Positions 3,261 to 57,819 of a DNA stretch of 64,000 bases are shown in pieces. The stretch is from Candidatus Omnitrophota bacterium (GTDB lineage Bacteria; Omnitrophota; Gorgyraeia; Gygaellales; Profunditerraquicolaceae). The position numbers and the translations under genes are program-made. Under the pieces are notes generated by a model. It was not told the DNA's origin, ran no database searches, and worked only from the letters and a program-made list of their open reading frames with translations. Positions within the stretch are counted from its first letter, which is position 1, and each line of letters opens with the position of its first letter. The stretch covers positions 206,206 through 270,205 of the forward strand of contig QZKH01000002.1 in assembly GCA_003598025.1 (NCBI GenBank). The letters run 5' to 3'.

Positions 3261-4553
3261 ATGATTGAGCGTTATTGTCTGCCCCAAATGGGAAAAATAT
3301 GGCAGGAGGATTTTAAGTTCAGGACGATGCTTGCCATAGAAATATTTGCCTTAGAATACCTTGCCTCTAAAAAAGCGGTCCCGCTTGACTCTCTAAAAAG
3401 AATAAAGAAAAAAGCAAAATTTGATATTAAACAGATAAAGAAAATAGAAGAAAAAACCCAGCACGATGTCGTTGCTTTTGTCAATTGCGTCGGAAGTTAT
3501 ATCGGGAAAGACGCAAAATACCTGCATATGGGGCTTACGTCTTCAGATGTGCTTGATACTACTTTAGGGGTACAACTTAAGAGTGCTTCTGATATTATAG
3601 TCGGCGGACTTAACAGGGTGCTTTTTGTGCTTTCCAGAAAAGCCTTGAAATATAAAGATATGGTTTGCATAGGCAGGACCCACGGTATACATGCTGAACC
3701 GACGACATTCGGCCTTAAGCTGGCGCTATGGTATGACGAAACCAAGCGTAATATAGAAAGAATGCGTTCCGCAAAAGAAGCAGTATCAACCGGAAAGATA
3801 TCCGGAGCTGTGGGTACATATGCCAATATAGACCCGCAGGCAGAAGCTTATATCTGCAGGAAGCTCGGGCTCAGGCCGGCTAAGATTTCTACACAGATAA
3901 TCCAGAGGGATATTTATGCCGAGTATATGTGCACATTGGCTATAATCGGAGCTTCTTTAGAAAAATTCGCCACTGAGATAAGGCATCTTCAGCGTACGGA
4001 AGTCCTGGAAGCAGAAGAGCCTTTTGGAAAAGGCCAGAAGGGGTCTTCTGCTATGCCGCATAAGAGAAACCCTGTTATTTGTGAACGTATATGCGGTCTC
4101 AGCCGTTTATTGAGAGGTAATGCGTTAGTTGCGCTTGAGAATGTGTCATTGTGGCATGAGCGCGATATCAGCCATTCTTCGGCAGAAAGGGTTATATTTG
4201 CCGATTCTACCCTGGCGTTGGATTACATGCTCCATAAATTCATAGAAGTAATCGATGGGCTCGTTGTGCATCCTGATAATATGCTGGCGAATATGGCTAA
4301 GACCAAGGGCCTGATATTTTCTCAAAGGGTGCTTTTAGCGCTTATGGCTAAGGGTCTTGCGCGCAGCCAGGCTTATGATATAGTGCAGAGGTGCGCGATG
4401 AAGACCTGGAAGGGCCAAAAGAGTTTCAGGGATAACTTACTTCAAGACAGCCAGCTCCTGAAACATCTCAACCCCAAAGAATTAGATAAGATATTTGACT
4501 TGGATTATTACCTCCGGCATGTTGATAAGATCTTCCATAATGTCGGGCTGTAA
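3261..4553 (+). CDS. purB: Adenylosuccinate lyase
   Basis: The fumarate-lyase signature GSSAMPHKRNP is present and overall PurB similarity is clear. ATG 3261 has better RBS spacing than the listed 3255. Confidence 0.9.
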   Translation: MIERYCLPQMGKIWQEDFKFRTMLAIEIFALEYLASKKAVPLDSLKRIKKKAKFDIKQIKKIEEKTQHDVVAFVNCVGSYIGKDAKYLHMGLTSSDVLDTTLGVQLKSASDIIVGGLNRVLFVLSRKALKYKDMVCIGRTHGIHAEPTTFGLKLALWYDETKRNIERMRSAKEAVSTGKISGAVGTYANIDPQAEAYICRKLGLRPAKISTQIIQRDIYAEYMCTLAIIGASLEKFATEIRHLQRTEVLEAEEPFGKGQKGSSAMPHKRNPVICERICGLSRLLRGNALVALENVSLWHERDISHSSAERVIFADSTLALDYMLHKFIEVIDGLVVHPDNMLANMAKTKGLIFSQRVLLALMAKGLARSQAYDIVQRCAMKTWKGQKSFRDNLLQDSQLLKHLNPKELDKIFDLDYYLRHVDKIFHNVGL

Positions 4554-4747
4554 TAATATATACAATATTGTTAATGCTTTACCCTGCCAGAAATAATAAG
4601 CGGTACCATTGAGCAGAAATTAAAAGCAGAGCAGGAAGTTGAGAGGGTGTCGTTTGTCCTTAGAATAAACCACTCTTTGGGAAATAAATAATACATTATT
4701 TTGCCTTTTAAAACTAATTTTTTCCTGCCTAATTTTACGGAGTTTTC

Positions 4748-23178: not shown

Positions 23179-23601
23179 TTGTTTTTCAGCGGCATAATTT
23201 TCTTTTCAGCCTGTATGATTTCAAGTCTTGGCTGTGCTAAAAACACGCACAAGAAAGTCTGTATAAAGAATGCCTGTATATCGGCTGAAATTGCGGATAC
23301 AGAAGGCAAAAGAACCAGGGGTTTAATGTTCCGGAAGGGTTTAGGCGGGGATGCAGGCATGCTCTTTGTTTATGAAAAAAATGTGCGTCCGTCATTTTGG
23401 ATGAAAAACATGCGTTTTCCGTTAGATATAATCTGGATAGATAAGGACCATAGGATAGTTGATGTTGTTTCTGATGTTCAGCCCTGCACCGATGATTGCG
23501 CATTACTGGTTTCGGATAGAGAGGTGCAATTCATACTTGAGGTAGAGTCGGGATTTGTAAGAAGGCATAATATAAAGCTGGGAGAACTTGTTGAGTTTTA
23601 A
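23179..23601 (+). CDS. DUF192 family protein, secreted
   Basis: A signal peptide is followed by the motifs RTRGLMFR, GMLFVY and LDIIWID. Confidence 0.55.
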   Translation: MFFSGIIFFSACMISSLGCAKNTHKKVCIKNACISAEIADTEGKRTRGLMFRKGLGGDAGMLFVYEKNVRPSFWMKNMRFPLDIIWIDKDHRIVDVVSDVQPCTDDCALLVSDREVQFILEVESGFVRRHNIKLGELVEF

Positions 23602-25472
23602 CCTTCCCGCAGTTGTTTTTCCGCATCCACAATATCACGGTTGATCACGCGTATTGTTTCATGGATTTTTTCTTTTAAGACATGTGAAATAGGGCAGGTG
23701 GCTATTTCTCTCAACACCTGTACGCTCATCCTGAAATAGCGTATAACTTCTCCTTCGTCGGTATCGGTCATCTGGAGGGTTTTGTTAAAGTTAGTTCCTC
23801 TTAACCAGGCTTCCATGCAGGCGCTTAAGTGAAAGAATGGCTGTTTGCTTACGGGATAGATTCTATAACGGCGTTCTTTTTCTTTTATCTTCTCAAAGAT
23901 ATCTTCGCATATATGCCTTATCCTTTTAGTGTTTTTTGATAAAGTAAGGATATGCTGGTTTTTCCTCGGCTCAAATACAACTCCCGCGGCAATGATCCCT
24001 AAGCCAAATTCATCCAGTTGCTCAAGGACCTGCTCCTCAAATAATTCAGAAAGCACCAATTCATACCCGTATACAGACTTAGCAAATTTCCCTTTTTCCG
24101 TGAGATGGCCGTCGTAGATATAGCCCATATCCTTAAGCAATTTTATCTTTGCGTCTATCAGCCTTAACGCCTCTCTTTGGTCATGGCTTTTGGATTGAAA
24201 ATAATGGAATGAAAGCGGGTATACCCTGTGGACTTCGTCTTTATATCTTTCGTAAAGGTTTAATATGGTAGCGTAGGAATTATTCAGCTGGCTCCTTACT
24301 TCTTCAGGCCTGCCGTAAATGATGCGCTTCGTATCTTCGGGTGATATCCTGTTAGGATTTACGCGGCAGTAGACAAAACCCTCTTTATCTATTCCTCTTC
24401 TTCCTGCGCGGCCCGCCATCTGGTAAAAATCCCTGGTTTTTAAGTTCCTGAAGAACCTGCCGTAGTATTTGCGCAGGTCGTCGAACATAACGCTGCGGCT
24501 GGGCATATTTATCCCCAGGGCAAAGGTCTCGGTGGTAAATATTATTTTTAAAAGCCTGCTGGTAAAAAGCCTTTCAATCACTTCTTTTAAGGTTGGCAGC
24601 ATGCCAGCATGATGGTAGGCGATACCTTTTTGTACAAGGGTAAATATTGCCTGGGCGGATTTTTCGTGTGTCAGGCTGAATTTTTCACAGAGCAAATTAA
24701 AAAGAGCAATGATTTTTTCTTTCTCCTGCGAGCTCAGGAAATTGTACCCTGATAATTCAAAGGCAAGCTCTTCGGCCCTGCGCCTGCCGAATACAAAATA
24801 AATTCCGGGCAGGCCGTCTTTTTGCTTTACGTAATTTATCAAAGCATTAAATTTGTTTGGGCGCGGATTCTTCGTCCTCCTGATCTTATTGATGTTGTCC
24901 AGTATCTCATTATTCGATTGGAAGAAAAAATGCAGGGGGACGGGGCGTTTTTCCTCAATGACCATCTTGGTCGGTTTTTTGCGTATTGTTTCTATCCATT
25001 GGGCAAAGAATTTTATATTTGGTATAGTGGCTGATAGGCCCAGGAGATTTAAATGTTCGGGCATAAAAATCAACGATTCTTCCCAGACTGTGCCGCGTTC
25101 AGGGTTATCAATGTAGTGTATCTCATCAAAGATCACCCAGGAATATTTTTTCAGGCTTAGCGGCTCCTCAAGTATCTTATTGCGCAGGATCTCCGTGGTC
25201 ATTATAAGCACAGGGGCATCCGGGTTAATGGATACATCGCCGGTAAGTATCCCTATTTTTTCTGAAAAGTTATCGTAGAAATCGCGGAATTTCTGGTTAG
25301 AGAGCGCTTTTATCGGTGCGGTATAAATTACGCCGGTATTTAATTTTATGGACTCGCTTATTACATGCTCTGCTATTGCTGTTTTGCCTGCGCCTGTTGG
25401 AGCCGAGACTATTACAGAATAGCCCTGATTTATGTAATTTATAGCTTCTTCTTGAAACCGGTCATATATCAT
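23598..25472 (-). CDS. Ski2-like DEAD/DEAH-box superfamily-2 helicase
   Basis: Walker A APTGAGKT, motif II DEIHY and the Ski2-type motif AYHHAGMLP are present, with arginine-finger QxxGRAGR. Confidence 0.8.
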   Translation of the reverse strand: MIYDRFQEEAINYINQGYSVIVSAPTGAGKTAIAEHVISESIKLNTGVIYTAPIKALSNQKFRDFYDNFSEKIGILTGDVSINPDAPVLIMTTEILRNKILEEPLSLKKYSWVIFDEIHYIDNPERGTVWEESLIFMPEHLNLLGLSATIPNIKFFAQWIETIRKKPTKMVIEEKRPVPLHFFFQSNNEILDNINKIRRTKNPRPNKFNALINYVKQKDGLPGIYFVFGRRRAEELAFELSGYNFLSSQEKEKIIALFNLLCEKFSLTHEKSAQAIFTLVQKGIAYHHAGMLPTLKEVIERLFTSRLLKIIFTTETFALGINMPSRSVMFDDLRKYYGRFFRNLKTRDFYQMAGRAGRRGIDKEGFVYCRVNPNRISPEDTKRIIYGRPEEVRSQLNNSYATILNLYERYKDEVHRVYPLSFHYFQSKSHDQREALRLIDAKIKLLKDMGYIYDGHLTEKGKFAKSVYGYELVLSELFEEQVLEQLDEFGLGIIAAGVVFEPRKNQHILTLSKNTKRIRHICEDIFEKIKEKERRYRIYPVSKQPFFHLSACMEAWLRGTNFNKTLQMTDTDEGEVIRYFRMSVQVLREIATCPISHVLKEKIHETIRVINRDIVDAEKQLREG

Positions 25473-35834: not shown

Positions 35835-38800
35835 ATGTCAGGATATTTCTTAATTTTTATTTTTATCAGTGTTGTTTTTATTGCTTATTCCTTTTACGGG
35901 ATGCTCCCGGCGGATTCAAGAAGCCGGAAGAAAAAAGGAAGAAGCAAATTTCCCGCCGGTAACGCAGACCAGGAGTTATTCAATAAAGAGCAGAAGATAA
36001 TAAACCTGGAAAACAGCCTTAACGAACTGCAGTTTGACCTGGAGAAAGCCCAGGCAGAGCGCGCCGGACTTGAGAAGCAGATTGAGGAGTTAAAAAGGTC
36101 CAAGTCGGAAGCCGAAGATAAATTAGAAAAGAGGCAGTCATGGGTTGATAAGGATAGCCAGGAGTTCGGGAAAGTCAAAGAGCAGAGCGCAAAATTGCAG
36201 AAAGAATTCCTGGAAAAAGAAAAGCAGCTTCAGGAAGAGTTTGCAAAGAATGTAAATCTAAACAGGGATGTAAATAATCTGAACATCAAGATACAAGGGC
36301 TGGAGAATGATATAAAAAATAAGGATGAACAGATCGAGCTGTCAAGGCACAGGATAGACAAGCTCACTAATGACCTTGAAGGGCTCAAAGCTCTCAGTAA
36401 TAAATTACAGAAGGAAAAAGAAATAAGCGAATGGGTGCCTAAAAGTGAATTCAGTAAATTAAACGAAGAGTATACTCAGCTTGAGAACGAACTTTTTGAA
36501 AAAGACGAGAAGATAAAGCGTTTCAGTGATGAGATAGTGCACTTAAATGATGAGCTTAAAAAAGTAAAGCTGCACCCTAAGGAAGAGCCTGCAGCAGAAG
36601 ATAAGCCCGCTGATTTAGTTAGCCAGGAAACAGAAGCAAAACCTGCTGAAGAAAAAGCGCCGTTGCCTGAAGCTAAGGAAGAGAATGCAGGGGCCGCTAA
36701 CGAAGAAGTAAAAGCAGCAGAGGAAAGCCAGGAGAAGACAGCCGCAGAAGAGCCGGTTACTGAAGAAGCAGAAAAAGCGGCGCAGGAGCCTGAAGCCCAA
36801 GAGGCAAAAGCTGCAGAGACAGAAGAAAAGACCGCAAAAGACAAATCTTCCAAAGAGCAAGTAGCAGCCCTTCCTAAGACCGAGCTGCATAAAATAAGGA
36901 ATATAGGCATAATGGCGCATATTGATGCCGGTAAGACTACCGTCAGCGAAAGGATACTTTTTTATACCGGACGTTCGCATAAAATCGGTGAAGTCCATGA
37001 AGGCAAGGCCCAGATGGACTGGATGAAACAGGAACAGGAAAGAGGGATTACAATAACTGCTGCGGCAACTACCTGTTTCTGGAAAGACCACCGTATAAGC
37101 CTGATAGACACTCCTGGCCACGTTGATTTTACGGTAGAGGTTGAAAGAAGCCTGCGTGTTTTAGACGGAGCCGTAGCTGTATTCTGCGCAGTAGGAGGGG
37201 TGGAACCGCAGTCAGAGACAGTTTGGCACCAGTCTGATAAATACAGCGTGCCAAAGATCGCTTTTGTAAATAAAATGGACAGGGTCGGCGCGGATTTCTT
37301 TTTTGTCTTGAGGGATATGGCGGATAAGCTCGGGGCTAATGCGGTAGCAATACAGATACCTGTGGGCCAGGAAGATAAATTCAGGGGGGTAATCGACCTT
37401 CTGGAAATGAAGGCATATATATATCACGACGATACGATGGGCAAGGATTACAGCGTAGAAGATATACCGCAGGAATTTATGGATGCGGCTAAGGAGTACC
37501 GCCATATAATGATTGAAAAGGCGGTTGCCTTTGATGAAGCCCTGATGAAAAAATATCTTGAGGCAGAAGATTCCATTACAATAGAGGAGCTTATATCTGT
37601 GATCAGGTCTGCGACGATTACCAATAAACTTGTCCCGGTCCTCTGCGGTTCAGCTTTTAAAAATAAAGGAGTGCAGAAACTCCTGGATGCGGTTAATATG
37701 TATTTACCGTCTCCCGCTGACCTTGCCGAGGTAGCCGGACACGACCCGAAAGATAAATCTATCGAGATAAAAAGAAAAAATAACTATCAGGAGCCTCTTT
37801 CTGCCCTGGCTTTTAAAGTACAGTCAGACCACCATGTAGGAAAGATCGTTTATGTGCGGGTTTATTCAGGCGTGCTTTCATCAGGGACTTATATCCTGAA
37901 TTCCGTGAAAAATAAAAAGGAGAGGGTGGGCAGGATCGTCCTGATGCATGCCAATCAAAGAGAGAATATAGATAATGCATTTGCCGGGGATATCATCGGC
38001 GTCGTTGGTTTGAACAATACCGTGACCGGGGATACATTATGCTCTGTGGAAAACCCGATACTTCTTGAAGCTATGGAATTTCCTGTCCCGGTTGTTTCTT
38101 TAAGCGTTACACCTAAGAGCAGGCAGGACCAGGATAAATTAGGCAGGGCGCTTGCCCGGCTGCTTGAAGAGGACCCAACTTTTATGGTAAGTTCCGACCA
38201 GGAGACAAAGGAGACGCTGCTTACCGGTATGGGCGAGCTGCATCTTGAAATTATAGTAGACAGGCTCAAAGAGGAATTCCAGGTGGAGGCCATAGTCGGC
38301 CAGCCTAAAGTCGCCTATAAAGAGACCATCCTGAATTCAGCTACGGCAGAAGGTAAATATATAAAACAGTCGGGTGGTCGCGGCCAGTACGGCCATGTAG
38401 TCATGGAGGTTTTGCCTAATGAGCAGGGCAAGGGGTTTGATTTTATCGACAGTATTAAGGGCGGCGCAATACCCAGGTCATTCATACCGGCAGTTGAGAA
38501 AGGCGTTGTTGAAGCTATGCAAAACGGGGTATATGCCGGATACCCCGTGGTTGATGTCAAAGTGAACCTTCTAGACGGTTCTTATCACGAAGTAGATTCG
38601 TCGGAACTGGCATTTAAGTTCGCCGCAATATTCGGGTTTAAGGAAGCGTTTTTAAAGGCGACACCTGTATTGCTTGAGCCATATATGGCGCTTGAGGTAA
38701 GCACGCCTGATGAATTCGCCAATAGTATCGTAGGTTATATCTGTTCGCGCAGGGGTAAGATCCTGAACATGGAAACAAAAGCAAAACAGAAACTGGTTTT

Positions 38801-38975
38801 TGCGGAAGTCCCGCTTGCCGAGATGTTCGGATATGCTACTGCATTCCGTTCTTTGAGCAGCGGCAGGGCCAATGCCCAGATGCATTTCTCCAAATATTTA
38901 CAGGTGCCGAATGAAATAGCGCAGAAGATAATAGAAGAAAATAAAGACAAGAAAGAAGGCAGGGCAAATGGGTGA
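35835..38975 (+). CDS. Elongation factor G paralog with about 340-aa N-terminal extension (TM helix, coiled coil, Ala/Glu/Lys-rich acidic linker)
   Basis: From about aa 345 the full EF-G domain set is present ([21 protein letters not shown], then domains II to V). The N-terminus has a hydrophobic helix, heptad-repeat coiled coil and low-complexity AEEK repeats. Confidence 0.8.
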
Positions 38976-39621
38976 CCTAAAATCCAGGGGAATGGAAAAA
39001 CTGGAAAAGAAGATGCAGTCTATTGATGCTGATTCCATGCGTTACAGGATACTTGAAAGTGCAAAGATGTTTAAGTCTTCATGGATAGACTTAGGACAGG
39101 CGCTATATTCGGCCTGGAAAGACAAGCTTTATAAGAACTGGGGCTATCAGCAGTTTGAGACATACAGCGTAAAAGAGCTTGGTATCCGCAAGCAGACAGC
39201 CTTAAAATTATTGAGGTCTTATTTTTTCCTTGAAAAAGAGGAGCCCGCCTTTCTTAAAAGAGAGGCGCTTGAATCACTTGAGCCTTCTCATGTGCCTAAC
39301 TATGAGTCAGTTGATATGCTGCGTTCGGCAAAAAGCAGGAAGATATTAGATGAACAGGATTATTCAGAGCTTAAGAAAGATATTCTGGAAAAGGGCAAAG
39401 ATTACCGTGACGTAAAAAAGGGCCTGACAGAGCTTATAAGGCAGCGTAATGAGCTTGAGCCTGATGAGGCAAGGCAGCAAAAAAGGCAGGCTTCTTTAAA
39501 GAGGCTGCTGGGCTTGCTGCGTTCAGTAAAGAAGGAAGCTGAAGTTTCTAAATTCCTTCCCGAACCCGTACTGAAGGATGCGGAGAGCCTGATAAAAAAG
39601 ATAGAATCGCTTCTGGAATGA
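38968..39621 (+). CDS. Hypothetical charged/coiled-coil protein
   Basis: The ORF overlaps the EF-G stop by 8 nt. No recognised domain. Confidence 0.4.
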
Positions 39622-39639: not shown

Positions 39640-40503
39640 ATGCAGACGAATAAAATATTCTTAAGCTTAGTATTGTTTATTTCTGGTGTTTTCTTAAGTG
39701 CTGTTTACGCGGAGCAGGCTTTTGAAGACAGGCCTTTTTCAATTGACGCTTATAGCAGGTATATACCGGAGAGTTCCGTCGAATCAATGCCGGGTAAAAT
39801 AGAGGTCTCTGATTCTGAATTTGAAATAAGCAGGGAATTTAAACTATATGATAAGCTTCCGGTAAAACTGTCGTTCAATAATCGTTTCATCGATTTAAAG
39901 GATTCTGTCCCGGTCAGGCTGCCGCCTAAATTAGTCGGCCTTTCCTTTGACGTAGAAACGACTGTGTATTTCTTTAATCTAAAAAATACATATTTGCGTT
40001 TGGGCATAACCCCGTCGTCATTCAGGGACGACTGGGACCTTGAATCTTCCAGTTTCCGCATTCCTTCCAGGGCATTAGTAATATACCAGCCCCAGAGCCG
40101 ATTGACATTTATCGCGGGGTTAGCCTGGTATCCTGATTTTGAAATTGAATTACTTCCGGTGATCGGTTTTATCTATAAGCCGAATGATAAACTCACATTC
40201 AGGATGGTGCCGGACAGGCCCGCTGTAAATTTCCGCTTGAATGATAAGATTACTTTATTTGCGGAGGGCAGCGCTAACTTAAATGAATTCGAAGTGACAA
40301 GAGGTAATGAGGAGAATGTTATCTTACAATACAGGCAGGCGGCTTTAGCTACAGGCCTAAGGTTTATGCTTAATGAATATACCCAGTTATCTTTATCGGT
40401 GGGCCAGGCATTTAACCGTCAGCTTAAGTACCGTGACGATAGCGCAAAAGTCAATATTGACAGTAGCGTTTTCGGCGAATTAAGGCTTGAGATAAGGATA
40501 TAA
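39640..40503 (+). CDS. Hypothetical secreted protein (signal peptide; beta-rich, possibly outer-membrane)
   Basis: A signal peptide MQTNKIFLSLVLFISGVFLSAVYA is followed by alternating hydrophobic patterns and a C-terminal aromatic residue. Confidence 0.4.
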   Translation: MQTNKIFLSLVLFISGVFLSAVYAEQAFEDRPFSIDAYSRYIPESSVESMPGKIEVSDSEFEISREFKLYDKLPVKLSFNNRFIDLKDSVPVRLPPKLVGLSFDVETTVYFFNLKNTYLRLGITPSSFRDDWDLESSSFRIPSRALVIYQPQSRLTFIAGLAWYPDFEIELLPVIGFIYKPNDKLTFRMVPDRPAVNFRLNDKITLFAEGSANLNEFEVTRGNEENVILQYRQAALATGLRFMLNEYTQLSLSVGQAFNRQLKYRDDSAKVNIDSSVFGELRLEIRI

Positions 40504-40506
40504 TCA

Positions 40507-41250
40507 ATGAAAAAGAAAAACATAATCATAATATCGAGCGTGGTTGTTATCCTGGGATTATTATTATTATCGGTAAAGCTTATGCCCGGCAGTATGAAAT
40601 GGGCAAAACAAGAAAAAGATAAAAGCCTGGATTTTCCGTATTTAGGCGAAAAGATAATCTATGAGGTGAAATTCGGGAAAATCCCTTTAGGCAGCGCAGT
40701 TTTTACTTATTTACCGCCTGAAACTGCGGGAGAAGGTATGATGTTGAGCCACATGAGGTTTGAAACAAGTGTTGCGCGCCTTAAGGACACGGAAGATATT
40801 TACTGTGACCCTAAAACAATGCTGCCCATAAAGATAAAGAGAGAAATCGTAAAGTGGATAAAAAAGGAGAATATCGTTGAGGAATATGACCAGAAGAATT
40901 TTTCGTTAAAGATAACAAAAAACGGTAATTCTGAGGAGAGCGTTTTTATTAAAAAAGATTCACCTATCCACAATGCTGTTTTGCTTCCGTTCTATGTCCG
41001 CGGGATCGCGGACCTGAAAAAGGGCTGGCAGCTTAAGGTCGCCCTTCCTCAAAAAAATTTTATTGTGACGCTTGATTCGGTAGAAAAGGTCAAGGTGCCT
41101 GCCGGGGAATTTCTTGCTTACCATTTTGTAAGCGAGCCGGCAGCAGTCGAAATATGGATAACCGTCGAGAAACGCATACCGGTTAAAATCGAAGGGCTGG
41201 GTGCGTTTGGGTATTCTCTTCAGATGAAGGAACTGCTTAAGGATGGCTAA
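40507..41250 (+). CDS. Hypothetical secreted/lipid-anchored protein
   Basis: There is an N-terminal signal/anchor. No recognised domain. Confidence 0.4.
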   Translation: MKKKNIIIISSVVVILGLLLLSVKLMPGSMKWAKQEKDKSLDFPYLGEKIIYEVKFGKIPLGSAVFTYLPPETAGEGMMLSHMRFETSVARLKDTEDIYCDPKTMLPIKIKREIVKWIKKENIVEEYDQKNFSLKITKNGNSEESVFIKKDSPIHNAVLLPFYVRGIADLKKGWQLKVALPQKNFIVTLDSVEKVKVPAGEFLAYHFVSEPAAVEIWITVEKRIPVKIEGLGAFGYSLQMKELLKDG

Positions 41251-47784: not shown

Positions 47785-48882
47785 TTGAAGAAATCCATAT
47801 TGCATGACCCTAAATTTTTCTTATATTCCCTGGCTACTGACAAGAAAAATGGTTTCATTGCCGGTGTAATTAAATTATTCCTGCTGATTTTATCTTTATT
47901 ATATGGTATAGCCGTTAATTTACTTATACTTTCATCAAGCTCAAGGAAGGCTGTCCTAAAATGCAAGGTCATAAGTATAGGCAATATCACTTTAGGCGGA
48001 ACAGGCAAGACTATGCTTGTGGAATATGTCTCAAGCTTCCTTAAGGAAAGCGGCATAAAATTTGCGATTATCAGCAGGGGTTATAAGAGAACCCTCTCTG
48101 CGGTTGCCAAAAACCAATTCTCAATCGCTCAAATGGGCGATGAGCCATATATGCTCTGGAAAAAACTCAAAGATGTCCCGGTCATCGTAGACAGCGACAG
48201 GATAAATGCCGCTGATAAAGCAATAAATGAATATAAGGTTAATGGCGTACTTCTTGATGATGCATTCCAGCAGTGGGCCATTAAAAAAGACCTGGAGGTC
48301 TGCGTAATCGATTCCTTGAATCCTTTTGGGAACGGGCATCTTATCCCGAGGGGGATTTTACGCGAGCCGCTCTCTTCATTAAAACGGGCGGATGTCTTTG
48401 TCTTAAGCAAGACAAATTTCTGCGAAAACCTTCCTGCGCTTGAACAGAGATTAAGCAGGATTAATTCTAAGGCGCTCATCGTAAAAAGCACCCATGAGTA
48501 CTGCGGGTTTTATAAAATCAACCAGCATCAGCTTGATTTTGAAATGGAATTTTTAAGGGATAAGAAAGTGGCCCTCATCTCCGGCATAGGAGACCCGCAT
48601 TCTTTTGAAAAAACAGTCAATTCTCTCGGCATAGATTATGAACTTTCTTTCAGGTTCATGGATCACCATAATTACACAAGCGACGAATTAAGGCATATCG
48701 TGAATAAGAGCGAAGAAAAAGGCATAACTTATATTATTACCACCGAGAAGGACGCAGTAAGGATCAGCGACCTCAACGAACCGGTTCTTACAGAGAATTT
48801 TCTGGTCTTAAAAGTAAAATTAAAGATAACCGATAATGAAGAAAAATTCCATAGTAGATTACTCAGGGTATTTTCTGCTTAA
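47785..48882 (+). CDS. lpxK: Tetraacyldisaccharide 4'-kinase
   Basis: An N-terminal TM helix is followed by the P-loop GNITLGGTGKT. Confidence 0.85.
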   Translation: MKKSILHDPKFFLYSLATDKKNGFIAGVIKLFLLILSLLYGIAVNLLILSSSSRKAVLKCKVISIGNITLGGTGKTMLVEYVSSFLKESGIKFAIISRGYKRTLSAVAKNQFSIAQMGDEPYMLWKKLKDVPVIVDSDRINAADKAINEYKVNGVLLDDAFQQWAIKKDLEVCVIDSLNPFGNGHLIPRGILREPLSSLKRADVFVLSKTNFCENLPALEQRLSRINSKALIVKSTHEYCGFYKINQHQLDFEMEFLRDKKVALISGIGDPHSFEKTVNSLGIDYELSFRFMDHHNYTSDELRHIVNKSEEKGITYIITTEKDAVRISDLNEPVLTENFLVLKVKLKITDNEEKFHSRLLRVFSA

Positions 48883-50788
48883 ATACCTCGGCCCGCTTAT
48901 AAGGTGTCTGCCTGTAAAGGCAGTTTACTTTTTGGGAAGGCGCTTAGGGGAGGCGATATACCTACTTGATTTTAAGCACCGCGCGATAGCGTATTCCAAC
49001 ATGAAGAGGGTCTTAGGCAGTGCTCAGCCTGCCTGGAGGCTGAAGAAGACGTTAAAAGGTTTTTACAGGTCGTTCGGCCAGAGCATTATGGACCTTTTTT
49101 TGATCCCGTCCATAAATGAAAAGTATATCAATAAATATATAAGTATAGACGGCAGGCAAAATTTGGATGAGGCATTTAAAAAAGGAAAGGGAGTCATATT
49201 CTGCGGGGTGCATGAAGGAAGCTGGGAGATCTATAATATCGTCTGTGCAAATTTAGGCCTTCCTTTTGTGCTTTTTGTCCGCCAGCAGTCGCTTAAACGC
49301 ATGGATGCTTTACTAAATTCTTACCGCAGGCATAATCAGTCCAAGGTGATACAGAGGGAAGCAAGTATGCGGCAGCTTGTTGAAGTTTTAGAGAGCAACG
49401 AATCCATAGGGATGACAGTAGATCAGGGAGGCGCAAAAGGCGAGCGGGTGAAATTCTTTGGCAAGAACGCCTCTATGGCAACAGGCGCAATACGCCTTGC
49501 GATAAAGCGCGATGTGACACTTGTGCCTGCTTTTTATCACCGGCTAAAGGGCCAATACGCAAAAATAATAATTGATAAGCCTTTCAAGATAGAGAAAACA
49601 GGGAATATTGAAGAAGACGTAAGGCTTAATTTAGAAAGGCTGATTCAAATATTTGAAGGGTATATTAAAAAATACCCCACTGAATTCTACTGGCCTTACA
49701 GGATATGGAAATACTCCGATGAGCGCAGTGTGCTTGTTTTAAGCGACGGGAAAGCAGGCCACATCAGGCAGTCAGATGCGCTTTTAAAGTTGATCAAAGA
49801 GCATTATGCGCAAGCCGGAATCAAGGCCGATGTCCAATATATAGACGTCAAATTCAAAAATAAATTTTCCAAGTTTTTATTGCAGTTATCGGCCTGTTTT
49901 AGCGGCAGGTACAGCTGCCAGGGCTGCTTCTGGTGCTTAAGGAGGTTTATTGAGCCAAATGTTTTAGGCGCGCTCACTAAAGCAAACCCGGACCTTGTTG
50001 TTTCCTGCGGCTCATCATTAGCTGCAATAAACTTCCTGGTATCAAGGGAGAGCTTAGCAAAATCCATAGTGATCATGAAGCCGTCGGTTTTTAGCGTAAG
50101 GAGGTTTGACCTCGTTATCATGCCCAGGCACGATGCGCCTCCCAGGAGAAAGAATGTTGTTATGATAGACGGTGTGCTCACCGGCGTAAATAAAGATTAT
50201 CTTAAAGAAAAAATGCGGCTGCTTGATGATTCCGGGCTTTACAGGAAAGGCGCCTCTTTCAATAACTATATAGGCTTATTTATCGGCGGAAAAAGCAAGA
50301 AATTCGGCTTAAGCAAGGACACTGCCTTGGCAGTTATAAGGCAGTTAAAAGATGTTTGCAGCAGCGCTGATTTCGGCTTGCTGGCTACTACCTCGCGCAG
50401 GACAACAGATGAGGTCGCCCGCGCAGTAAAAGACGAGCTGCATGATGAGAAATGCTGCTCGCTGCTGGTGATATACAATGAAAAGAATTATCCTTTTATA
50501 TCCGGAGGGATACTGGCAAAGAGCGATATTGTTGTTGTATCTGCTGACAGCATATCCATGGTATGCGAGGCAATAGATAGCTTAAAGCACGTAATCGTAT
50601 TTAAAGACGCAGGCTTATCAGGCAGGCACAAGGCGCTGCTTAATAATTTCGCAAGGAAAGGCCTTATCCATCTTATAGAGCCGGTAAGGCTTAAGGCTGA
50701 GATAGAAGAAATAATCATCCAGAAACCGGTGATAAAAACTAGCTCCAAAGAATCATTGATAAGAGAGGCATTAAAGAAAGTATTATGA
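48836..50788 (+). CDS. Fusion: lipid A biosynthesis lauroyl/myristoyl acyltransferase (LpxL/HtrB family) + ELM1/DUF1022 (mitochondrial-fission-ELM1-like) domain
   Basis: The N-terminal 290 aa or so has an LpxL-like layout with an H(X)4E-type region (GVHEGSWE). The C-terminal 350 aa or so has ELM1-like blocks (VLVLSDGKAGH). The two are often neighbours in LPS loci. Confidence 0.55.
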   Translation: MKKNSIVDYSGYFLLKYLGPLIRCLPVKAVYFLGRRLGEAIYLLDFKHRAIAYSNMKRVLGSAQPAWRLKKTLKGFYRSFGQSIMDLFLIPSINEKYINKYISIDGRQNLDEAFKKGKGVIFCGVHEGSWEIYNIVCANLGLPFVLFVRQQSLKRMDALLNSYRRHNQSKVIQREASMRQLVEVLESNESIGMTVDQGGAKGERVKFFGKNASMATGAIRLAIKRDVTLVPAFYHRLKGQYAKIIIDKPFKIEKTGNIEEDVRLNLERLIQIFEGYIKKYPTEFYWPYRIWKYSDERSVLVLSDGKAGHIRQSDALLKLIKEHYAQAGIKADVQYIDVKFKNKFSKFLLQLSACFSGRYSCQGCFWCLRRFIEPNVLGALTKANPDLVVSCGSSLAAINFLVSRESLAKSIVIMKPSVFSVRRFDLVIMPRHDAPPRRKNVVMIDGVLTGVNKDYLKEKMRLLDDSGLYRKGASFNNYIGLFIGGKSKKFGLSKDTALAVIRQLKDVCSSADFGLLATTSRRTTDEVARAVKDELHDEKCCSLLVIYNEKNYPFISGGILAKSDIVVVSADSISMVCEAIDSLKHVIVFKDAGLSGRHKALLNNFARKGLIHLIEPVRLKAEIEEIIIQKPVIKTSSKESLIREALKKVL

Positions 50789-52881
50789 ATATCCTGCAGG
50801 TACTTCCTGAATTAAATGTCGGCGGCGTAGAAACAGGCACGCTTGATCTTGCCAAGCATCTTGTCAAGCTCGGGCATAATGCAGTGGTTGTATCCTGCGG
50901 CGGGGCGCTGGTCAAGGAGCTTGAGAGCTACGGCATAAAACATTATCAGCTTGCGGTAAATAAAAAATCCATTCCCACGATGATAAAGATGGTCCCTAAA
51001 TTAGCCGAGATAATAACCAGGGAAAACATCGATATAGTGCATGCGCGCTCGCGCGTGCCGGCATGGATAGCCTATTTTGCCGCAAGACGGACCAGGCGCG
51101 TATTTATAACTACCTGCCACGGTTATTACACCAGGCATCCGTTTAGTTTTGTCATGGGCTGGGCAAAGAAGGTCATCGTATTGAGCAATGTGATAGGCAG
51201 GCATATGATCGAGGATTTTGGCGTGCCGGTTGAGCGGGTAAGGATGATACCGCGCAGCGTTGACATCGAGAAATTCAAATTTATCGACCCGCAGGAAAAA
51301 AAGTTTGATTATTTTAACGTCGGCATAATCGGCAGGATCACCCCTTTAAAGGGGCACCTTGATTTTATAAAAGCTATGGCTAAAGTCGCGCGGGTCATCC
51401 CGCGGCTTAAGATTTGGATAGTCGGAGATGCGCCGGAATCAAAAGAGGCGTATAAAGAGCAGGTGCAGGTTTTAGTCAGGAGGCTGGGCTTAAGCCACTG
51501 CACCCAGTTTCTGGGCACGCAAAGGAACATACCGGAGATATTATCCAATTTTAACCTGCTTGTTTTAGCAACGACAACCCAGGAGGCATTCGGCAGGGTA
51601 ATAATAGAGGCGCAGGCAAGCGGCGTTCCGGTAGTCGCGACAAAAGTCGGAGGCGTAATTGATATAATTGAGAATGGTAAAAACGGGATTTTAGTTGCGC
51701 CTGCCGATCCTCTGGCGATGTCCGAAGCAATAATCAAGATAGCAAAGGACCCCGCTCTTGCCGGGAAAATGGCCCATGCCGCATACAAAAAAGTGGTTGA
51801 GAAATATAATATCGAGCTGATGGTAAAAAATACCATGAAAGTCTACGATGAGGCGCTCCAGGATAAGAGCATTCTGATAATCAAGCTCAGCTCGCTCGGA
51901 GATATCATACTTTCTACCGCGGCAATACGCGCCATAAGAGAAAAATTCAGCAGGAATTATAAGATTACGCTTTTGGTGGATGAAAAATTCAAAGAGCCGG
52001 TACTGACTTGCCCCTATATCGACGAATTGCTGGTATGCGATTTTAAATTCCGCGATTCCGGGATAAAGGGGCTGCTTAAGCTGGCTAAGATACTAAGGAA
52101 AAAGAATTTTGATATAGCCATCGACCTGCAGAATAACCACCGCAGCCATCTTTTGTCTTTTTTAAGCCTTGCTGTAGACCGGTATGGTTACAAAAATAAT
52201 AAATTCGGGTTTTTGCTTAACAAGGGTGTCAGACTTGATAAGGCTCCGGCGCCTCCGGTAGAGCACCAGTTCCGGATATTAAAACCTTTAGGTATTGAGT
52301 TGAATGACCCCAGGCTAGAAATGTGGCCGGCAAAGAAGGACCATGATTATGTAGATGAGTTTCTCGGCTCTGAATGGCTGAATTCGAAGCAGAGGTTGAT
52401 CGGGATAAATATAAGCGCAAGCAAAAGATGGCTCACCAAAGGCTGGCCGATAGAGCATATGGTAAAGTTATGCGAGGAGCTTGCGCGCAAAGAATTCAGG
52501 ATGGTCATAACCGGCTTAGAACATGATTCAAAACTGGCAACGGAATTGATAAAAAGACTTAAAAACACAAAAGCGATTAATGCCTGCGGAAAGACTTCCA
52601 TAAATCAGCTTGCCTGCCTGATTGCAAGGTGCAGCGTTTTTATTTCGGGAGATTCTGCGCCGCTGCATATTGCATCCAGCCAGAATATCCCGGTGGTTGC
52701 GCTTTTCGGGCCGACTGATCCCCTGCGGCATATCCCGCCGCATGATAAAATAATCGTAATAAGGAAAGAACTATCCTGTTCGCCGTGCTATAAACCCAAC
52801 TGCAGGAATATAAGGTGCATGAACCAGATTAAACCCGAAGAAGTGATTGACGCGGTTATGCAGCTACTGGAAGGCAAATGA
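50785..52881 (+). CDS. Fusion: GT4 glycosyltransferase (N) + GT9 ADP-heptose:LPS heptosyltransferase (C)
   Basis: The N-terminal half has GT4 EX7E-type motifs (EAQASGVPVVATKVGG). The C-terminal half has GT9 motifs (ILIIKLSSLGD, GDSAPLHIASS). Confidence 0.7.
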   Translation: MNILQVLPELNVGGVETGTLDLAKHLVKLGHNAVVVSCGGALVKELESYGIKHYQLAVNKKSIPTMIKMVPKLAEIITRENIDIVHARSRVPAWIAYFAARRTRRVFITTCHGYYTRHPFSFVMGWAKKVIVLSNVIGRHMIEDFGVPVERVRMIPRSVDIEKFKFIDPQEKKFDYFNVGIIGRITPLKGHLDFIKAMAKVARVIPRLKIWIVGDAPESKEAYKEQVQVLVRRLGLSHCTQFLGTQRNIPEILSNFNLLVLATTTQEAFGRVIIEAQASGVPVVATKVGGVIDIIENGKNGILVAPADPLAMSEAIIKIAKDPALAGKMAHAAYKKVVEKYNIELMVKNTMKVYDEALQDKSILIIKLSSLGDIILSTAAIRAIREKFSRNYKITLLVDEKFKEPVLTCPYIDELLVCDFKFRDSGIKGLLKLAKILRKKNFDIAIDLQNNHRSHLLSFLSLAVDRYGYKNNKFGFLLNKGVRLDKAPAPPVEHQFRILKPLGIELNDPRLEMWPAKKDHDYVDEFLGSEWLNSKQRLIGINISASKRWLTKGWPIEHMVKLCEELARKEFRMVITGLEHDSKLATELIKRLKNTKAINACGKTSINQLACLIARCSVFISGDSAPLHIASSQNIPVVALFGPTDPLRHIPPHDKIIVIRKELSCSPCYKPNCRNIRCMNQIKPEEVIDAVMQLLEGK

Positions 52882-54751: not shown

Positions 54752-55769
54752 AAGGATACTGATTTTTAACGTTAATTGGCTGGGAGATGTATTATTTTCT
54801 ACCGCGGTTATCAGGAATTTAAAACGCAATTACCCGGATAGCTATATTGCCTGTTGTGTGCCGGGAAGGTGCCTGCAGATTATCAAGGGCAACCCGCACC
54901 TGGATGAGATCATTATTTACGACGAGCGCGGCAAGGCAAAGGGCCTTATGCCGCGGCTTAAATTCATCAACATGCTTAAAACAAAGAAATTTGATACGGT
55001 TTATCTTTTACACCGGTCGTTCAGCCGCGCGCTTATGTGCAGGCTGGCAGGCATACCTGAGAGGATAGGCTATCATACTAAAAAGAGGGCGTTTCTTCTT
55101 ACTAAAGCCATAAAACAGCCTAAAAAAGACAGCATGCACCGTATAGATTATTACCTTAATATCTTAAAAGAAAGCGGGCTTGCCTGTCATGACCGGCACA
55201 CTGAGTTTACATTTGACGACATGGATATGCTTGCCGTTGGCAATTTTTTCAAGGAAAATGATTTGGATGATAAAGGCCTGCTTATTGCTATTAACCCGGG
55301 CGGGAATTGGCTTCCCAAACGCTGGCCCAAAGAAAATTGGGCAAAACTGGCTGACCTGATAATCAGTGAATTAAAGGCAAAAGTTATTATTACCGGCGGC
55401 TCCCAGGATTTAAAATTAAGCAAAGAAATAGAAGGCTTGATGAAAAATAAGCCGGTCATCTCTGTAGATATCTTTAATTTAAAACAGCTGGGCGCATTGT
55501 TAAGCAGGATACCGCTTTTTATTACTGCTGATTCCGGGCCTTTGCATATCGCAAGCTCGGTAGGCTGCAGGAACATTATCGCTATCTTCGGCCCGACTTC
55601 GGCCAGCGTAACCGGGCCTGTGCCGGGAGATAATACGCTGATTATCCAAAAAGACGTAGGATGCAAAATCCCATGCTACGAGGTGAAATGCCCGGATAAC
55701 CGCTGCATGAAGGCGATTACCCCGGAAGAGGTTTTAAAAGAAATCAAAAAGATTTATGCCAAAAGATAA
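54744..55769 (+). CDS. GT9 LPS heptosyltransferase
   Basis: An AAGGAG RBS precedes the ATG at 54744. The motifs ILIFNVNWLGD and ADSGPLHIASS are present. Confidence 0.8.
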   Translation: MTKRILIFNVNWLGDVLFSTAVIRNLKRNYPDSYIACCVPGRCLQIIKGNPHLDEIIIYDERGKAKGLMPRLKFINMLKTKKFDTVYLLHRSFSRALMCRLAGIPERIGYHTKKRAFLLTKAIKQPKKDSMHRIDYYLNILKESGLACHDRHTEFTFDDMDMLAVGNFFKENDLDDKGLLIAINPGGNWLPKRWPKENWAKLADLIISELKAKVIITGGSQDLKLSKEIEGLMKNKPVISVDIFNLKQLGALLSRIPLFITADSGPLHIASSVGCRNIIAIFGPTSASVTGPVPGDNTLIIQKDVGCKIPCYEVKCPDNRCMKAITPEEVLKEIKKIYAKR

Positions 55770-57819
55770 ACAAGTCAAAAAAATACTATTCATCACCCTA
55801 AGCAATATCGGTGATAATTTTCTATCCCTTCCGGTATTAGATACCTTAAAAGAATGTTTCCCCCTTGCCCAGATACACGTAATGGCAGCGCTCCGGCCTA
55901 AAGAGATATTTGAGAATAACCCCCTGATAAGTAAAGTCATCGCGTACGATAAGCACTCCCGCTTAAGCGAGAAGATGAAATTGTTCGGCCAGCTCCAGAG
56001 AGAAAGATACGATATCGTCATTGATTTGCGCAACAGCCTCTTTGGCGCGCTCCTTCCTGCGCGCTACAGGATTTCGCCGTTTCTTATCGTGCCTAAAGAC
56101 ATAAAGCATATGAATTCCAGGCATCTTTATAAAGTAAAAAAGATCCTGCTTAAGATAAAGAAAGATTTATCCGTAAGCATGAAGGAGACAGTGTTTTTCT
56201 TGAACCCCGAGGATAAGGCGCGCATAAAGAAGATCCTTTTAGACCACGGACTTTTTTTCCGTAACGACGTAGTCGTGGTCTCAGCCGGCGCGCGCAGTTA
56301 TATCAAGCGCTGGCCCAAGGAAAAATTCACCGAGCTCATTACTTTAATGATAAAAGAATTCGGCGTAAAGGTGGTCTTAGTCGGAGATAAGGACGATGAG
56401 CCGGTCTCTGAATATATAGCCAGCAACTGCCCGTATCCTGTGTTGAATTTAACGGGCCAAACCAATATCGCCCAGCTTGCGTACCTTTTAAAGCGGGCAA
56501 GGTTTTTAATAACTAATGACAGCGCGCCTCTTCATATCGTAAGTTACCTGAACGTGCCGGTAGTGGCAATATTCGGGCCGACCAACGAAGAAAAATACGG
56601 TCCCTGGTCGGATAACTATTCGCTGGCAAAAAAAGATATCTCCTGCCGGCCGTGCGAGAAAGCAGATTGTTCCCTCGGCTCGATAAACTGCATGAACATG
56701 ATAAGGGCTGACGAGGTATTACGCCTTGCGCGCAAGATGATAGTTGACAAGTTTGAGCCGCAAGATAAAAAGATAGACCATGATTTTAAGCGCATCCTCA
56801 TTGTGCGCACTGACAGGATCGGCGATGTGGTCTTATCTACCCCGGTGATTAAGAACCTGCGCAATAGATTCCCTTCAGCATATATTGCCATGGTGGTTTC
56901 TCCGCAGGCAAAGGAGATAATTGACAATAACCCCTATCTTGATGAAGTGATACTCTATGATAAGGACAAAGAGCATAAAGGATGGCAGCAGAGCATGGAA
57001 TTTGCCGGGCTTCTTGCCAAGAAAAAGTTTGATATAGCAATAATACTGCATCCGACCAACCGCATGCACTTATTGACATTCCTGGCAAAGATACCGGTCA
57101 GGGTAGGCTATGACAAGAAAATGGGATTTTTGTTGAGTAAAAAGATAAAGCATACAAAACAATTAGGGCAAAAACACGAGCTTGAGTATAATCTGGATTT
57201 ATTAAAGGCAATCGGCATAAATGCCGAAGATAAAGAATTAATTTTTAATATCCGCCCGGAAGTTGAGATATGGGCGCGCCATAAATTAATGAATTTGGGC
57301 GTAAAAGACAACGAGAAGGTAATAGCAATACATCCCTCAGCAAGTTGCCCTTCTAAGATCTGGCCGCATGAGAGATTTGCACAACTTGCAGATAAGCTTA
57401 TCGAGAAATACAGCTTTAAAGTGCTCATTGTGGCTGCTGCAAAGGATAATTATCTGGCTGAAAAAGTGATGAAAGAGATGTATAATGAAGCCATAAACTT
57501 AAGCGGAGAGACTTCCGTCAGCCAATTAGCCGCAATATTAAAGAGAAGCGTTTTATTCATATCCAATGATTCCGGGCCCGTGCATGTTGCTAGCGCGGTA
57601 AACACTCCGGTTATCTCCATTTTTGGCAGGAACCAGGCAGGGCTTAGCCCCAAGCGCTGGGCGCCGGTAGGCAAAAAAGATAAGGTCCTGCATAAAGAAG
57701 TCGGCTGCATCCAATGCCTTGCGCATAACTGTAAAAAGAATTTTGCCTGTTTAAGGGCGATAGGTGTGGAGGATGTGATTAGAGCGGTGGAAGAGGTATT
57801 AGCGAAGCAGCTGTTATAA
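55756..57819 (+). CDS. Tandem double GT9 heptosyltransferase (two complete GT9 modules in one polypeptide)
   Basis: The two halves carry the motifs NDSAPLHIVS and NDSGPVHVASA, each with its own N-terminal ILxxxxxxIGD block. Confidence 0.75.
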   Translation: MPKDKQVKKILFITLSNIGDNFLSLPVLDTLKECFPLAQIHVMAALRPKEIFENNPLISKVIAYDKHSRLSEKMKLFGQLQRERYDIVIDLRNSLFGALLPARYRISPFLIVPKDIKHMNSRHLYKVKKILLKIKKDLSVSMKETVFFLNPEDKARIKKILLDHGLFFRNDVVVVSAGARSYIKRWPKEKFTELITLMIKEFGVKVVLVGDKDDEPVSEYIASNCPYPVLNLTGQTNIAQLAYLLKRARFLITNDSAPLHIVSYLNVPVVAIFGPTNEEKYGPWSDNYSLAKKDISCRPCEKADCSLGSINCMNMIRADEVLRLARKMIVDKFEPQDKKIDHDFKRILIVRTDRIGDVVLSTPVIKNLRNRFPSAYIAMVVSPQAKEIIDNNPYLDEVILYDKDKEHKGWQQSMEFAGLLAKKKFDIAIILHPTNRMHLLTFLAKIPVRVGYDKKMGFLLSKKIKHTKQLGQKHELEYNLDLLKAIGINAEDKELIFNIRPEVEIWARHKLMNLGVKDNEKVIAIHPSASCPSKIWPHERFAQLADKLIEKYSFKVLIVAAAKDNYLAEKVMKEMYNEAINLSGETSVSQLAAILKRSVLFISNDSGPVHVASAVNTPVISIFGRNQAGLSPKRWAPVGKKDKVLHKEVGCIQCLAHNCKKNFACLRAIGVEDVIRAVEEVLAKQLL

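Follow-up and report, generated by a model that had tools for sequence, protein, structure and literature searches.

The window analyzed here, a stretch of 64,000 nucleotides of the Candidatus Omnitrophota assembly GCA_003598025.1 (contig QZKH01000002.1, positions 206,206 to 270,205), encodes an elongation factor G (EF-G) of 1046 amino acids (aa) that, judged from its sequence, is a gene fusion of an autonomous membrane coiled-coil protein with an EF-G. A first-pass annotation of this DNA had described the gene product as an EF-G that a coiled coil and an acidic linker tether to the membrane. This architecture was confirmed by hidden Markov models (HMMs), an AlphaFold2 model, and the conservation among relatives, but what had been regarded as a stalk is more than a stalk, since the first ~226 aa are homologous to a family of free-standing proteins with a length of ~225 to 263 aa and the gene is therefore a gene fusion. 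The comparison with related sequences furthermore supports the view that this protein, termed here the long EF-G, is a paralogue of the EF-G1 type at the level of its clade. As a whole, the data are best explained by an EF-G1 paralogue that arose by fusion and that acts as a working EF-G confined to the proximity of the inner membrane, a reading to which we assign a probability of about 0.6. The coordinates of the features discussed are compiled in Table 1, and residues are numbered throughout according to the protein encoded in the window.

Architecture of the long EF-G and its free-standing relatives

An exhaustive phmmer search with aa 1 to 345 against 1.84 billion representative sequences returned 138 matches, which comprised long EF-Gs, fragments of these, and proteins of about 215 to 260 aa. 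The latter, referred to as the free-standing family, possess an N-terminal transmembrane (TM) helix, a cluster of Lys and Arg residues, a coiled coil, and the C-terminal motif W(V/I)AK(S/T)E(Y/F); they contain no EF-G and end with the coiled coil or with a short acidic tail behind it. The module in the window, in contrast, continues in frame into the linker and the EF-G, and its sequence is that of a fused derivative and not of an ordinary stand-alone member. The alignment by hhalign of the N-terminal module of the long forms (A2) with the free-standing family (A1) resulted in a match with a probability of 99.9% (E = 5.9e-33) over 226 collinear columns, in which both of the Trp motifs described below are in register; the three heptad segments are shared as well. 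An HMM built exclusively from the free-standing proteins matched aa 7 to 222 of the window protein with E = 3.4e-36 and recognized the N terminus of every long EF-G collected (E = 1e-37 to 1e-17). The free-standing family itself gave only sub-threshold generic coiled-coil matches in Pfam and NCBIfam, and a profile search of the PDB retrieved generic coiled coils only and no specific structure.

The idea that all strong short matches were contig fragments proved to be wrong, because P0241 and P0245, which encode proteins of 263 and 257 aa, respectively, are complete genes with true stop codons; P0241 is 40% identical to the window module and was detected on 12 contigs. P0317 is also a complete unfused gene, located on a 90-kb contig of a metagenome-assembled genome. 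P0243, on the other hand, is half of a long gene that was broken in the linker by assembly; it shares its single-cell genome of origin with L065, and in this genome the long EF-G is split precisely in the linker onto L065 (JBHPGR010000042) and L091 (JBHPGR010000048). Fragmented assemblies can therefore mimic a normal-length EF-G accompanied by an orphan coiled-coil fragment.

The fused architecture is widespread. The closest 120 protein clusters contained 985 to 1064 aa and most of them covered 94 to 100% of the query, the sole exception being a 925-aa entry that begins within the coiled coil. When one genome of each species was scanned, 80 loci from 80 assemblies were obtained, which were labelled Omnitrophota or Omnitrophica or, in some cases, "Planctomycetales." All 76 ORFs (open reading frames) that could be reconstructed in full carry the N-terminal extension, a consistency that goes far beyond chance. 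Of the remaining four loci, three are truncated at the end of a contig, and the P-loop pattern did not detect the fourth, which also possesses the N-terminal module according to the HMM of the free-standing family.

The EF-G moiety is, according to its profile matches, of the canonical EF-G1 (EFG I) type. The Pfam families GTP_EFTU, EF-G_D2, EFG_III, EFG_IV, and EFG_C were all detected over their gathering thresholds, and TIGR00484, the equivalog model of EF-G, was matched by aa 348 to 1038 with 1047.1 bits (cutoff, 659.4) over model positions 4 to 691 of 691. Scores under the respective cutoffs were obtained with the models for EF-G2 (NF009377, 504 bits versus 890; NF058620, 481 versus 1000), Tet(M)/Tet(O) (NF012153, 386 versus 775), RF3, BipA, and EF4/LepA (TIGR01393, 177 versus 534), and both domain IV and the G' insert are there. 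In the AlphaFold2 model, which is that of a monomer and was built on 65 homologues, the predicted local distance difference test (pLDDT) of this moiety was mostly between 80 and 94, with lower values in the switch regions of the G domain and in parts of domains III and IV.

At the other end of the protein, the 19-residue window with the highest hydrophobicity of the entire sequence corresponds to aa 6 to 24 (Kyte-Doolittle value of 2.33), and AlphaFold2 predicted a helix at aa 2 to 22 that is followed by disorder at aa 24 to 48. The hydropathy threshold for an N-terminal helix was passed by 105 of 120 database homologues and by nearly all of the 76 full genomic ORFs; the homologues that failed either start with a Met inside the helix or scored slightly under the threshold. 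The helix frequently ends in YA(L/V)YG. The uncharged N-terminal segment had a median length of 27 aa among 167 distinct sequences, and 92% of these were devoid of Lys and Arg before the hydrophobic segment. The 20 aa following that segment contained at least 3 such residues in all 167 sequences, with a mean of 5.5. A cleavable signal peptide of the Sec type was rejected because the positive cluster is located after and not before the hydrophobic segment, which is the signature of a reverse signal-anchor. Applied to this distribution of Lys and Arg, the positive-inside rule predicts that the N terminus is outside and that the coiled coil, the linker, and the EF-G are cytoplasmic, which would place the EF-G on the side of the membrane where GTP and ribosomes are found.

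The coiled-coil region comprises ~200 aa, is rich in Glu, Lys, and Leu, and shows heptad periodicity at about aa 30 to 110, 129 to 177, and 193 to 240. AlphaFold2 predicted coiled-coil helices at aa 48 to 198 and 203 to 243, with a break at aa 199 to 202. W103 of the first Trp motif aligns with W100, a near-invariant residue in the free-standing family, and the sequence SEWVPKxEFNKLNEEY, the counterpart of the C-terminal motif of that family, was present at ~aa 200 in 73 of the 76 long forms. The linker (27% Glu, 24% Ala, and 13% Lys at aa 246 to 345, with a net charge of -17) was modelled as disordered at about aa 240 to 343, with a pLDDT of ~30. Across 71 orthologues, its length was between 51 and 137 aa and its net charge was always negative (-1 to -31), with 27% Asp plus Glu and 16% Pro, and there was no conservation of its sequence. 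According to upper-end estimates from the monomer model, the modelled helices (151 + 41 residues) would span ~28 nm when extended and the linker would add 5 to 7 nm root mean square (contour length of 38 nm), and in a sphere with a radius of 100 nm a reach of 35 nm would take in about 73% of the volume.

The gene is a single uninterrupted ORF. Its start codon is located 6 nt past the stop codon of a waaA-like gene at 35826, and since this is an in-frame stop directly 5' of the ORF, the first ATG past it is the longest possible start. No obvious Shine-Dalgarno (SD) sequence was present ahead of this start. The NCBI record RJP29850.1 (1024 aa) starts at M23 and leaves out the TM helix, whereas JGI and a second NCBI record call all 1046 aa (P0383). 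Several database homologues also begin at a Met within the TM helix, and M1 is favoured over M23 by the comparative data. Such start-codon miscalls, exemplified by RJP29850.1, hide the membrane anchor in part of the public annotation.

The first-pass annotation had noted that a true start near aa 340, preceded by a separate gene, would turn the extension into a gene-calling artefact, and it had proposed that relatives be inspected for the same extension. The latter is borne out by the 76 full ORFs mentioned above, and a start of that kind could not be found: no in-frame ATG, GTG, or TTG exists between codon 277 and M360, and M360 is too late for a functional G domain because it lies inside the P-loop strand. 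Among the 76 orthologues, in-frame starts in the 40 codons before the P-loop were scattered and none was conserved, SD-like sequences were found in only 8, and not one of the 76 genomes contained split orthologues. The linker joins the normal N terminus of EF-G directly (PxPKYSLEKTRNIGI). Based on 13 close gene pairs, the median ratio of nonsynonymous to synonymous substitution rates (dN/dS) was 0.19 for the TM and basic segments, 0.10 for the coiled coil, 0.33 for the linker, and 0.04 for the EF-G; each segment is under purifying selection and is translated. An erroneous merging of a membrane coiled-coil protein gene with a normal fusA would be in line with the existence of both parts as separate genes in other organisms and with the inconsistent start call at NCBI (M23 versus M1). 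However, the 1046 codons are free of stops, 76 of 76 genomes show one continuous ORF, there is neither a start codon between codon 277 and M360 nor a conserved internal one in the orthologues, and selection acts on the linker, which is in frame. In the light of these sequence data, the artefact is effectively refuted.

Relation to the normal-length EF-G

The complete chromosome CP070797.1 (L079) encodes EF-Gs of 698 and 1051 aa that are 1.6 kb apart. The order of genes (L079:5248-12094) is short EF-G, rlmB-type 23S rRNA methyltransferase, peptidoglycan-binding protein, and long EF-G. Both EF-Gs share 72% identity in a gapless alignment and match TIGR00484 with 1095 (short) and 1056 (long) bits. 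A search with the short form retrieved at least 120 clusters of 689 to 704 aa with 75 to 85% identity, many of which are named Omnitrophota or Omnitrophica. In a joint alignment, the mean identity was 75% among long forms, 77% among short forms, and 68% between long and short forms. A bootstrapped neighbor-joining tree had the topology ((long),(short)),outgroups. The long clade was supported by 146/200 replicates, and the short clade and the pair each obtained 200/200. The long forms were slightly farther from the outgroups than the short forms.

Earlier, the gene had been considered to be probably a second fusA copy, and at the clade level this view is supported by the clade of ~698-aa proteins, the pair in L079, and the tree. 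The argument originally given for it, namely a location outside the str operon, is weak. The str operon (rpsL-rpsG-fusA-tuf) is the usual location of fusA and not a defining trait; rpsL, rpsG, and tuf are absent within 10 kb of the long EF-G in the window and in all 80 loci, but the short Omnitrophota EF-G is likewise found outside this operon, so that the genomic context cannot tell the copies apart. No other EF-G is present within the 64-kb window, and two ORFs of EF-G size (698 and 687 aa) were rejected as a second EF-G because they are glycosyltransferase fusions. A third, distant EF-G-like gene with 39% identity was observed ~8 kb from the long EF-G in two loci (L015:18589-20484 and L010:19891-20403). 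It passes the NF009381 subfamily model and is just under the cutoff of TIGR00484, and some Omnitrophota thus carry three genes of the EF-G family.

The P-loop, switch I, switch II with its catalytic His, the NKxD motif (NKMD), and G5 are conserved across 77 long forms, as are both domain IV tip loops (e.g., SYHEVDSSE), and the conservation per domain was similar in the long and short clades. From this we infer that the long EF-G is GTPase competent and ribosome dependent. Only seven positions (R556, K572, A715, T797, F883, N963, and K986) discriminate the clades, in the sense that each clade has its own residue there, conserved to at least 90%. Two changes affect the G' helix: at position 565 a Glu of the short clade is Ala or Ser in the long clade, and at position 572 Glu is replaced by Lys. 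These two residues may contact L12; no mutational data specific to them were retrieved from the literature searched. The G' subdomain is the docking surface of EF-G for the L7/L12 stalk, and the contact affects docking and inorganic phosphate (Pi) release (PMC5207388).

Gene neighborhood and other features of the window

Table 1. Features of the long EF-G gene and of other genes in the window
Feature	Position (nt)	Strand	Remarks
waaA	34566-35828	+	Upstream of long EF-G
Long EF-G coding sequence	35835..38975	+	1046 aa plus stop; single uninterrupted ORF
N-terminal transmembrane anchor	35838..35900	+	aa 2-22; predicted N-out/C-in
Juxtamembrane basic disordered segment	35904..35969	+	aa 24-45; net charge +5
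Coiled-coil module	35970..36563	+	aa 46-243; heptads, AlphaFold2 helices, homology to free-standing family
First conserved Trp motif (QSWVDKDS)	36132..36155	+	W103 invariant
Second conserved Trp motif	36423..36473	+	W200, F206, L209, N210, E212 invariant; helix break at P202
Acidic disordered linker, rich in Ala, Pro, Glu, and Lys	36564..36869	+	aa 244-345; pLDDT ~30
Complete EF-G moiety	36870..38972	+	aa 346-1046
G domain with G' insert (GTP_EFTU)	36891-37712	+	aa 353-626
G' helix segment	37527..37550	+	aa 565-572; long clade lacks two Glu that are near-invariant in short clade
EF-G domain II	37794-38048	+	aa 654-738
EF-G domain III	38079-38300	+	aa 749-822
EF-G domain IV	38304-38660	+	aa 824-942
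EF-G domain V	38667-38927	+	aa 945-1031
orf217	38968..39621	+	217 aa; ATG overlaps EF-G stop by 8 nt
DUF6268-family gene	39640-40503	+	Downstream of long EF-G
DUF3108 gene	40507-41250	+	After DUF6268-family gene
Lipid A acyltransferase fused to ELM1-like domain	48836-50788	+	650 aa
GT4 fused to GT9 heptosyltransferase	50785-52881	+	698 aa
Protein with two GT9 matches	55756-57819	+	687 aa

The gene that follows the long EF-G, orf217, is preceded by an SD-like sequence, GAAGGAAGG, just 5' of its start and is probably translationally coupled to the long EF-G. Its product had no match in Pfam or NCBIfam. Homologues of orf217 are located directly 3' of the long EF-G in five other loci (L001, L013, L029, L034, and L039), and because it is kept in this position it may be functionally linked to the long EF-G. 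A DUF6268-family gene was found 3' of the long EF-G in four loci, namely, the window, L001, L056 (12292-13047), and L072 (4354-5121). Conserved synteny was rejected as a functional clue, since waaA is upstream in 2 loci and orf217 and DUF6268 are downstream in 6 and 4 loci, respectively.

The genes neighboring the free-standing members share 34 to 59% identity with Omnitrophota DNA. In L088, a DUF6268-family gene (4529-5422) is located two genes downstream of the unfused P0241; since this family follows both fused and unfused genes, these share a related neighborhood, and DUF6268 is the only neighborhood link common to both forms. In L061, rlmB and a gene for an HD hydrolase are directly 5' of the long EF-G, and in L083 and L084 an rlmB-HD pair is found ~4 to 5 kb 5' of the free-standing module. 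L061 and L079 are the only loci with rlmB, with or without the HD gene, upstream of the long EF-G, and this is too sparse to support a positional orthology with L083 and L084. Two ORFs with a TM segment and a coiled coil, L014:6437-6958 (174 aa) and L069:13099-13983 (295 aa), are located 1 to 1.3 kb 3' of the long EF-G and match the HMM of the free-standing family with E = 1e-14 and 7e-11, respectively. Some genomes may thus carry the fusion together with an unfused relative.

As for the remaining features of the window, the cluster of fused lipopolysaccharide core genes, along with waaA, shows that the organism makes lipopolysaccharide. A gene on the minus strand (23598-25472) encodes a 624-aa DEAD-box helicase with a C-terminal DSHCT (Ski2/Mtr4-type) domain, a combination more familiar from RNA-surveillance helicases of eukaryotes and archaea. 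On the plus strand, positions 4748-7651 encode a 967-aa FGAM synthase in which an N-terminal PurS-like domain is fused to PurL, and positions 902-977 encode a tRNA-Met (CAT), which was the sole RNA gene found in the window by ARAGORN and Rfam. The segment 58001-60000 has a G+C content of 33%, compared to about 43% in the rest of the window, and may be horizontally acquired or rich in intergenic sequence.

Possible function of the long EF-G

The preferred reading implies that a duplicated fusA was fused once, early in the Omnitrophota, behind the gene of an autonomous single-pass membrane coiled-coil protein, with an acidic disordered linker of 50 to 140 aa joining the coiled-coil module and the EF-G. 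The EF-G moiety would be a normal ribosome-dependent GTPase that is still able to enter the ribosomal factor site, and it would be confined to a shell of ~30 to 35 nm, or at most ~65 nm, from the inner membrane. Most Omnitrophota cells are ~0.2 µm in diameter (PMC10066038), and in cells of this size such a shell would amount to most of the membrane-nearest cytoplasm. Ribosomes close to the membrane, for instance those engaged in the synthesis of envelope and secreted proteins, would be the preferred recipients of the translocation and/or recycling activity of the long EF-G, and the bulk ribosomes would be left to the soluble EF-G of ~698 aa. The invariant Trp motifs and the stand-alone existence of its relatives suggest that the N-terminal module probably docks to a specific membrane partner and goes beyond a passive spacer. 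Furthermore, the loss of the two acidic residues in G' suggests that the recruitment by the L7/L12 stalk was retuned for a pre-localized factor, a proposal based in part on a review (PMC5207388).

Several known systems resemble the long EF-G in part. Its architecture follows the logic of bitopic tethers of the ZipA/EzrA type, in which an N-out/C-in anchor, a charged or coiled-coil region, and a flexible linker carry a globular cytoplasmic domain that, in ZipA, captures FtsZ; there is no sequence relationship, and the cargo is a translation factor. With canonical FusA, as defined by TIGR00484, the long EF-G shares the five domains, the G' insert, the GTPase motifs, the catalytic His, and the domain IV loops, but it differs by the 345-aa extension, the absence of a str operon, and the seven clade-specific substitutions; its mean identity to the normal-length Omnitrophota EF-G is 68%. 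Divergent EF-G2 and spd-type paralogues belong to a different subfamily. The presence of two EFG I copies in one genome has a precedent in Pseudomonas aeruginosa, where EF-G1A and EF-G1B divide translocation and recycling (PMC3832671). These two are 84% identical, as compared to 72% in L079, and in either pair both copies look GTPase competent. Both P. aeruginosa proteins are soluble and of normal length, whereas the division proposed for the long EF-G would be spatial (membrane versus bulk). EF4/LepA and its mitochondrial counterpart Guf1 are, like the long EF-G, translational GTPases of the EF-G superfamily at the membrane (PMC4324249). However, LepA is devoid of domain IV and G', contains a C-terminal domain of its own, and associates with the membrane peripherally, whereas the long EF-G has a TM helix.

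Other roles have to be weighed against that of a working EF-G near the membrane. A rather unlikely one is that the EF-G serves as a handle that holds active or hibernating ribosomes at the membrane, with slowed turnover; this would fit the loss of the two acidic residues of G', whose contacts with L12 affect docking and Pi release (PMC5207388), the conserved motifs and autonomous existence of the N-terminal module, and the availability of a soluble EF-G for catalysis. However, the conservation of the catalytic His, the P-loop, the switches, and the domain IV tip matches that of the short clade, and the EF-G moiety evolves with a dN/dS of 0.04, as a functioning enzyme typically does. A mere handle should decay at its catalytic sites, as is the case for the GTPase-dead EF-G2 proteins. 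Storage of EF-G at the membrane as a reserve, from which proteolysis of the linker would free a soluble EF-G under particular conditions, appears unlikely. The linker is long, disordered, and presumably accessible to proteases, and a membrane-stored pool of EF4/LepA that is set free under stress has been described (PMC4324249), but the linker varies between 51 and 137 aa and contains no conserved cleavage-site sequence, the storage of LepA is peripheral and independent of a TM anchor, and simple storage would not need coiled-coil motifs that are so strongly conserved (dN/dS of 0.10).

A non-translational role, in which the N-terminal module acts in envelope biogenesis, division, or another process and the EF-G has been co-opted as a GTP switch or mechanical element, is very unlikely. 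Although the free-standing family exists without EF-G, envelope genes are nearby (waaA upstream, DUF6268 and DUF3108 downstream), and the link to DUF6268 is common to fused and unfused forms, this synteny with envelope genes is limited to a few loci, and the decoding-centre loops of domain IV as well as the catalytic His, which depends on the sarcin-ricin loop, are conserved and would be needless off the ribosome. It is also unlikely that the long form is the main or only EF-G of the organism, with all elongation being membrane anchored. Such a notion may draw on the match to the equivalog model (1047 bits), on the lack of a second EF-G in the 64-kb window, and on the fact that the short copy was not located for the same genome; however, one complete genome holds both forms, the short clade comprises many members, which are better conserved and nearer to the outgroups, as expected of a housekeeping copy, and absence from the window is uninformative because it covers just 64 kb of the genome.

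A number of points weigh against the reading of the long EF-G as a membrane-confined paralogue that arose by fusion. The monophyly of the long clade has a bootstrap support of only 73%, the outgroups of the tree are few (three sequences and the distant EF-G-like gene of L015), and the co-occurrence of short and long EF-G in one genome is a single case, L079. Coiled-coil composition can inflate profile-profile scores, though the Trp motifs align in register, and the reach would be shorter if the modelled helices folded back or were lying along the membrane. The gene neighborhood of the long EF-G is not conserved among the 80 loci and hence gives no functional support, and no genes for Sec, YidC, the signal recognition particle (SRP), or the ribosome are adjacent to it.

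Full-text searches of the literature did not retrieve any account of an EF-G with a membrane anchor or an N-terminal extension, a broad survey of translational GTPases (PMC4342817) makes no mention of a membrane-anchored EF-G, and the main paper on the Omnitrophota (PMC10066038) makes no mention of EF-G. A membrane-anchored EF-G design that is conserved across the ultra-small Omnitrophota thus seems to be undescribed.

In textbooks, translational GTPases are diffusible cytosolic factors. An anchored, intact EF-G1 under phylum-wide purifying selection would show that bacteria can assign elongation or recycling capacity to separate regions of the cell, and it would offer a handle on how ultra-small, reportedly hyperactive cells organize few ribosomes. 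The uncharacterized family of membrane coiled-coil proteins becomes, at the same time, a candidate partner of the translation apparatus. In a "Rosetta stone" sense, the free-standing family might be a membrane receptor for EF-G or ribosomes, the interaction having been made permanent by the fusion; we consider this possible though doubtful. If true, cells of ~0.2 µm would possess a dedicated membrane translation zone, a bacterial counterpart of the rough endoplasmic reticulum that would be organized by an elongation factor and not by SRP and Sec alone.

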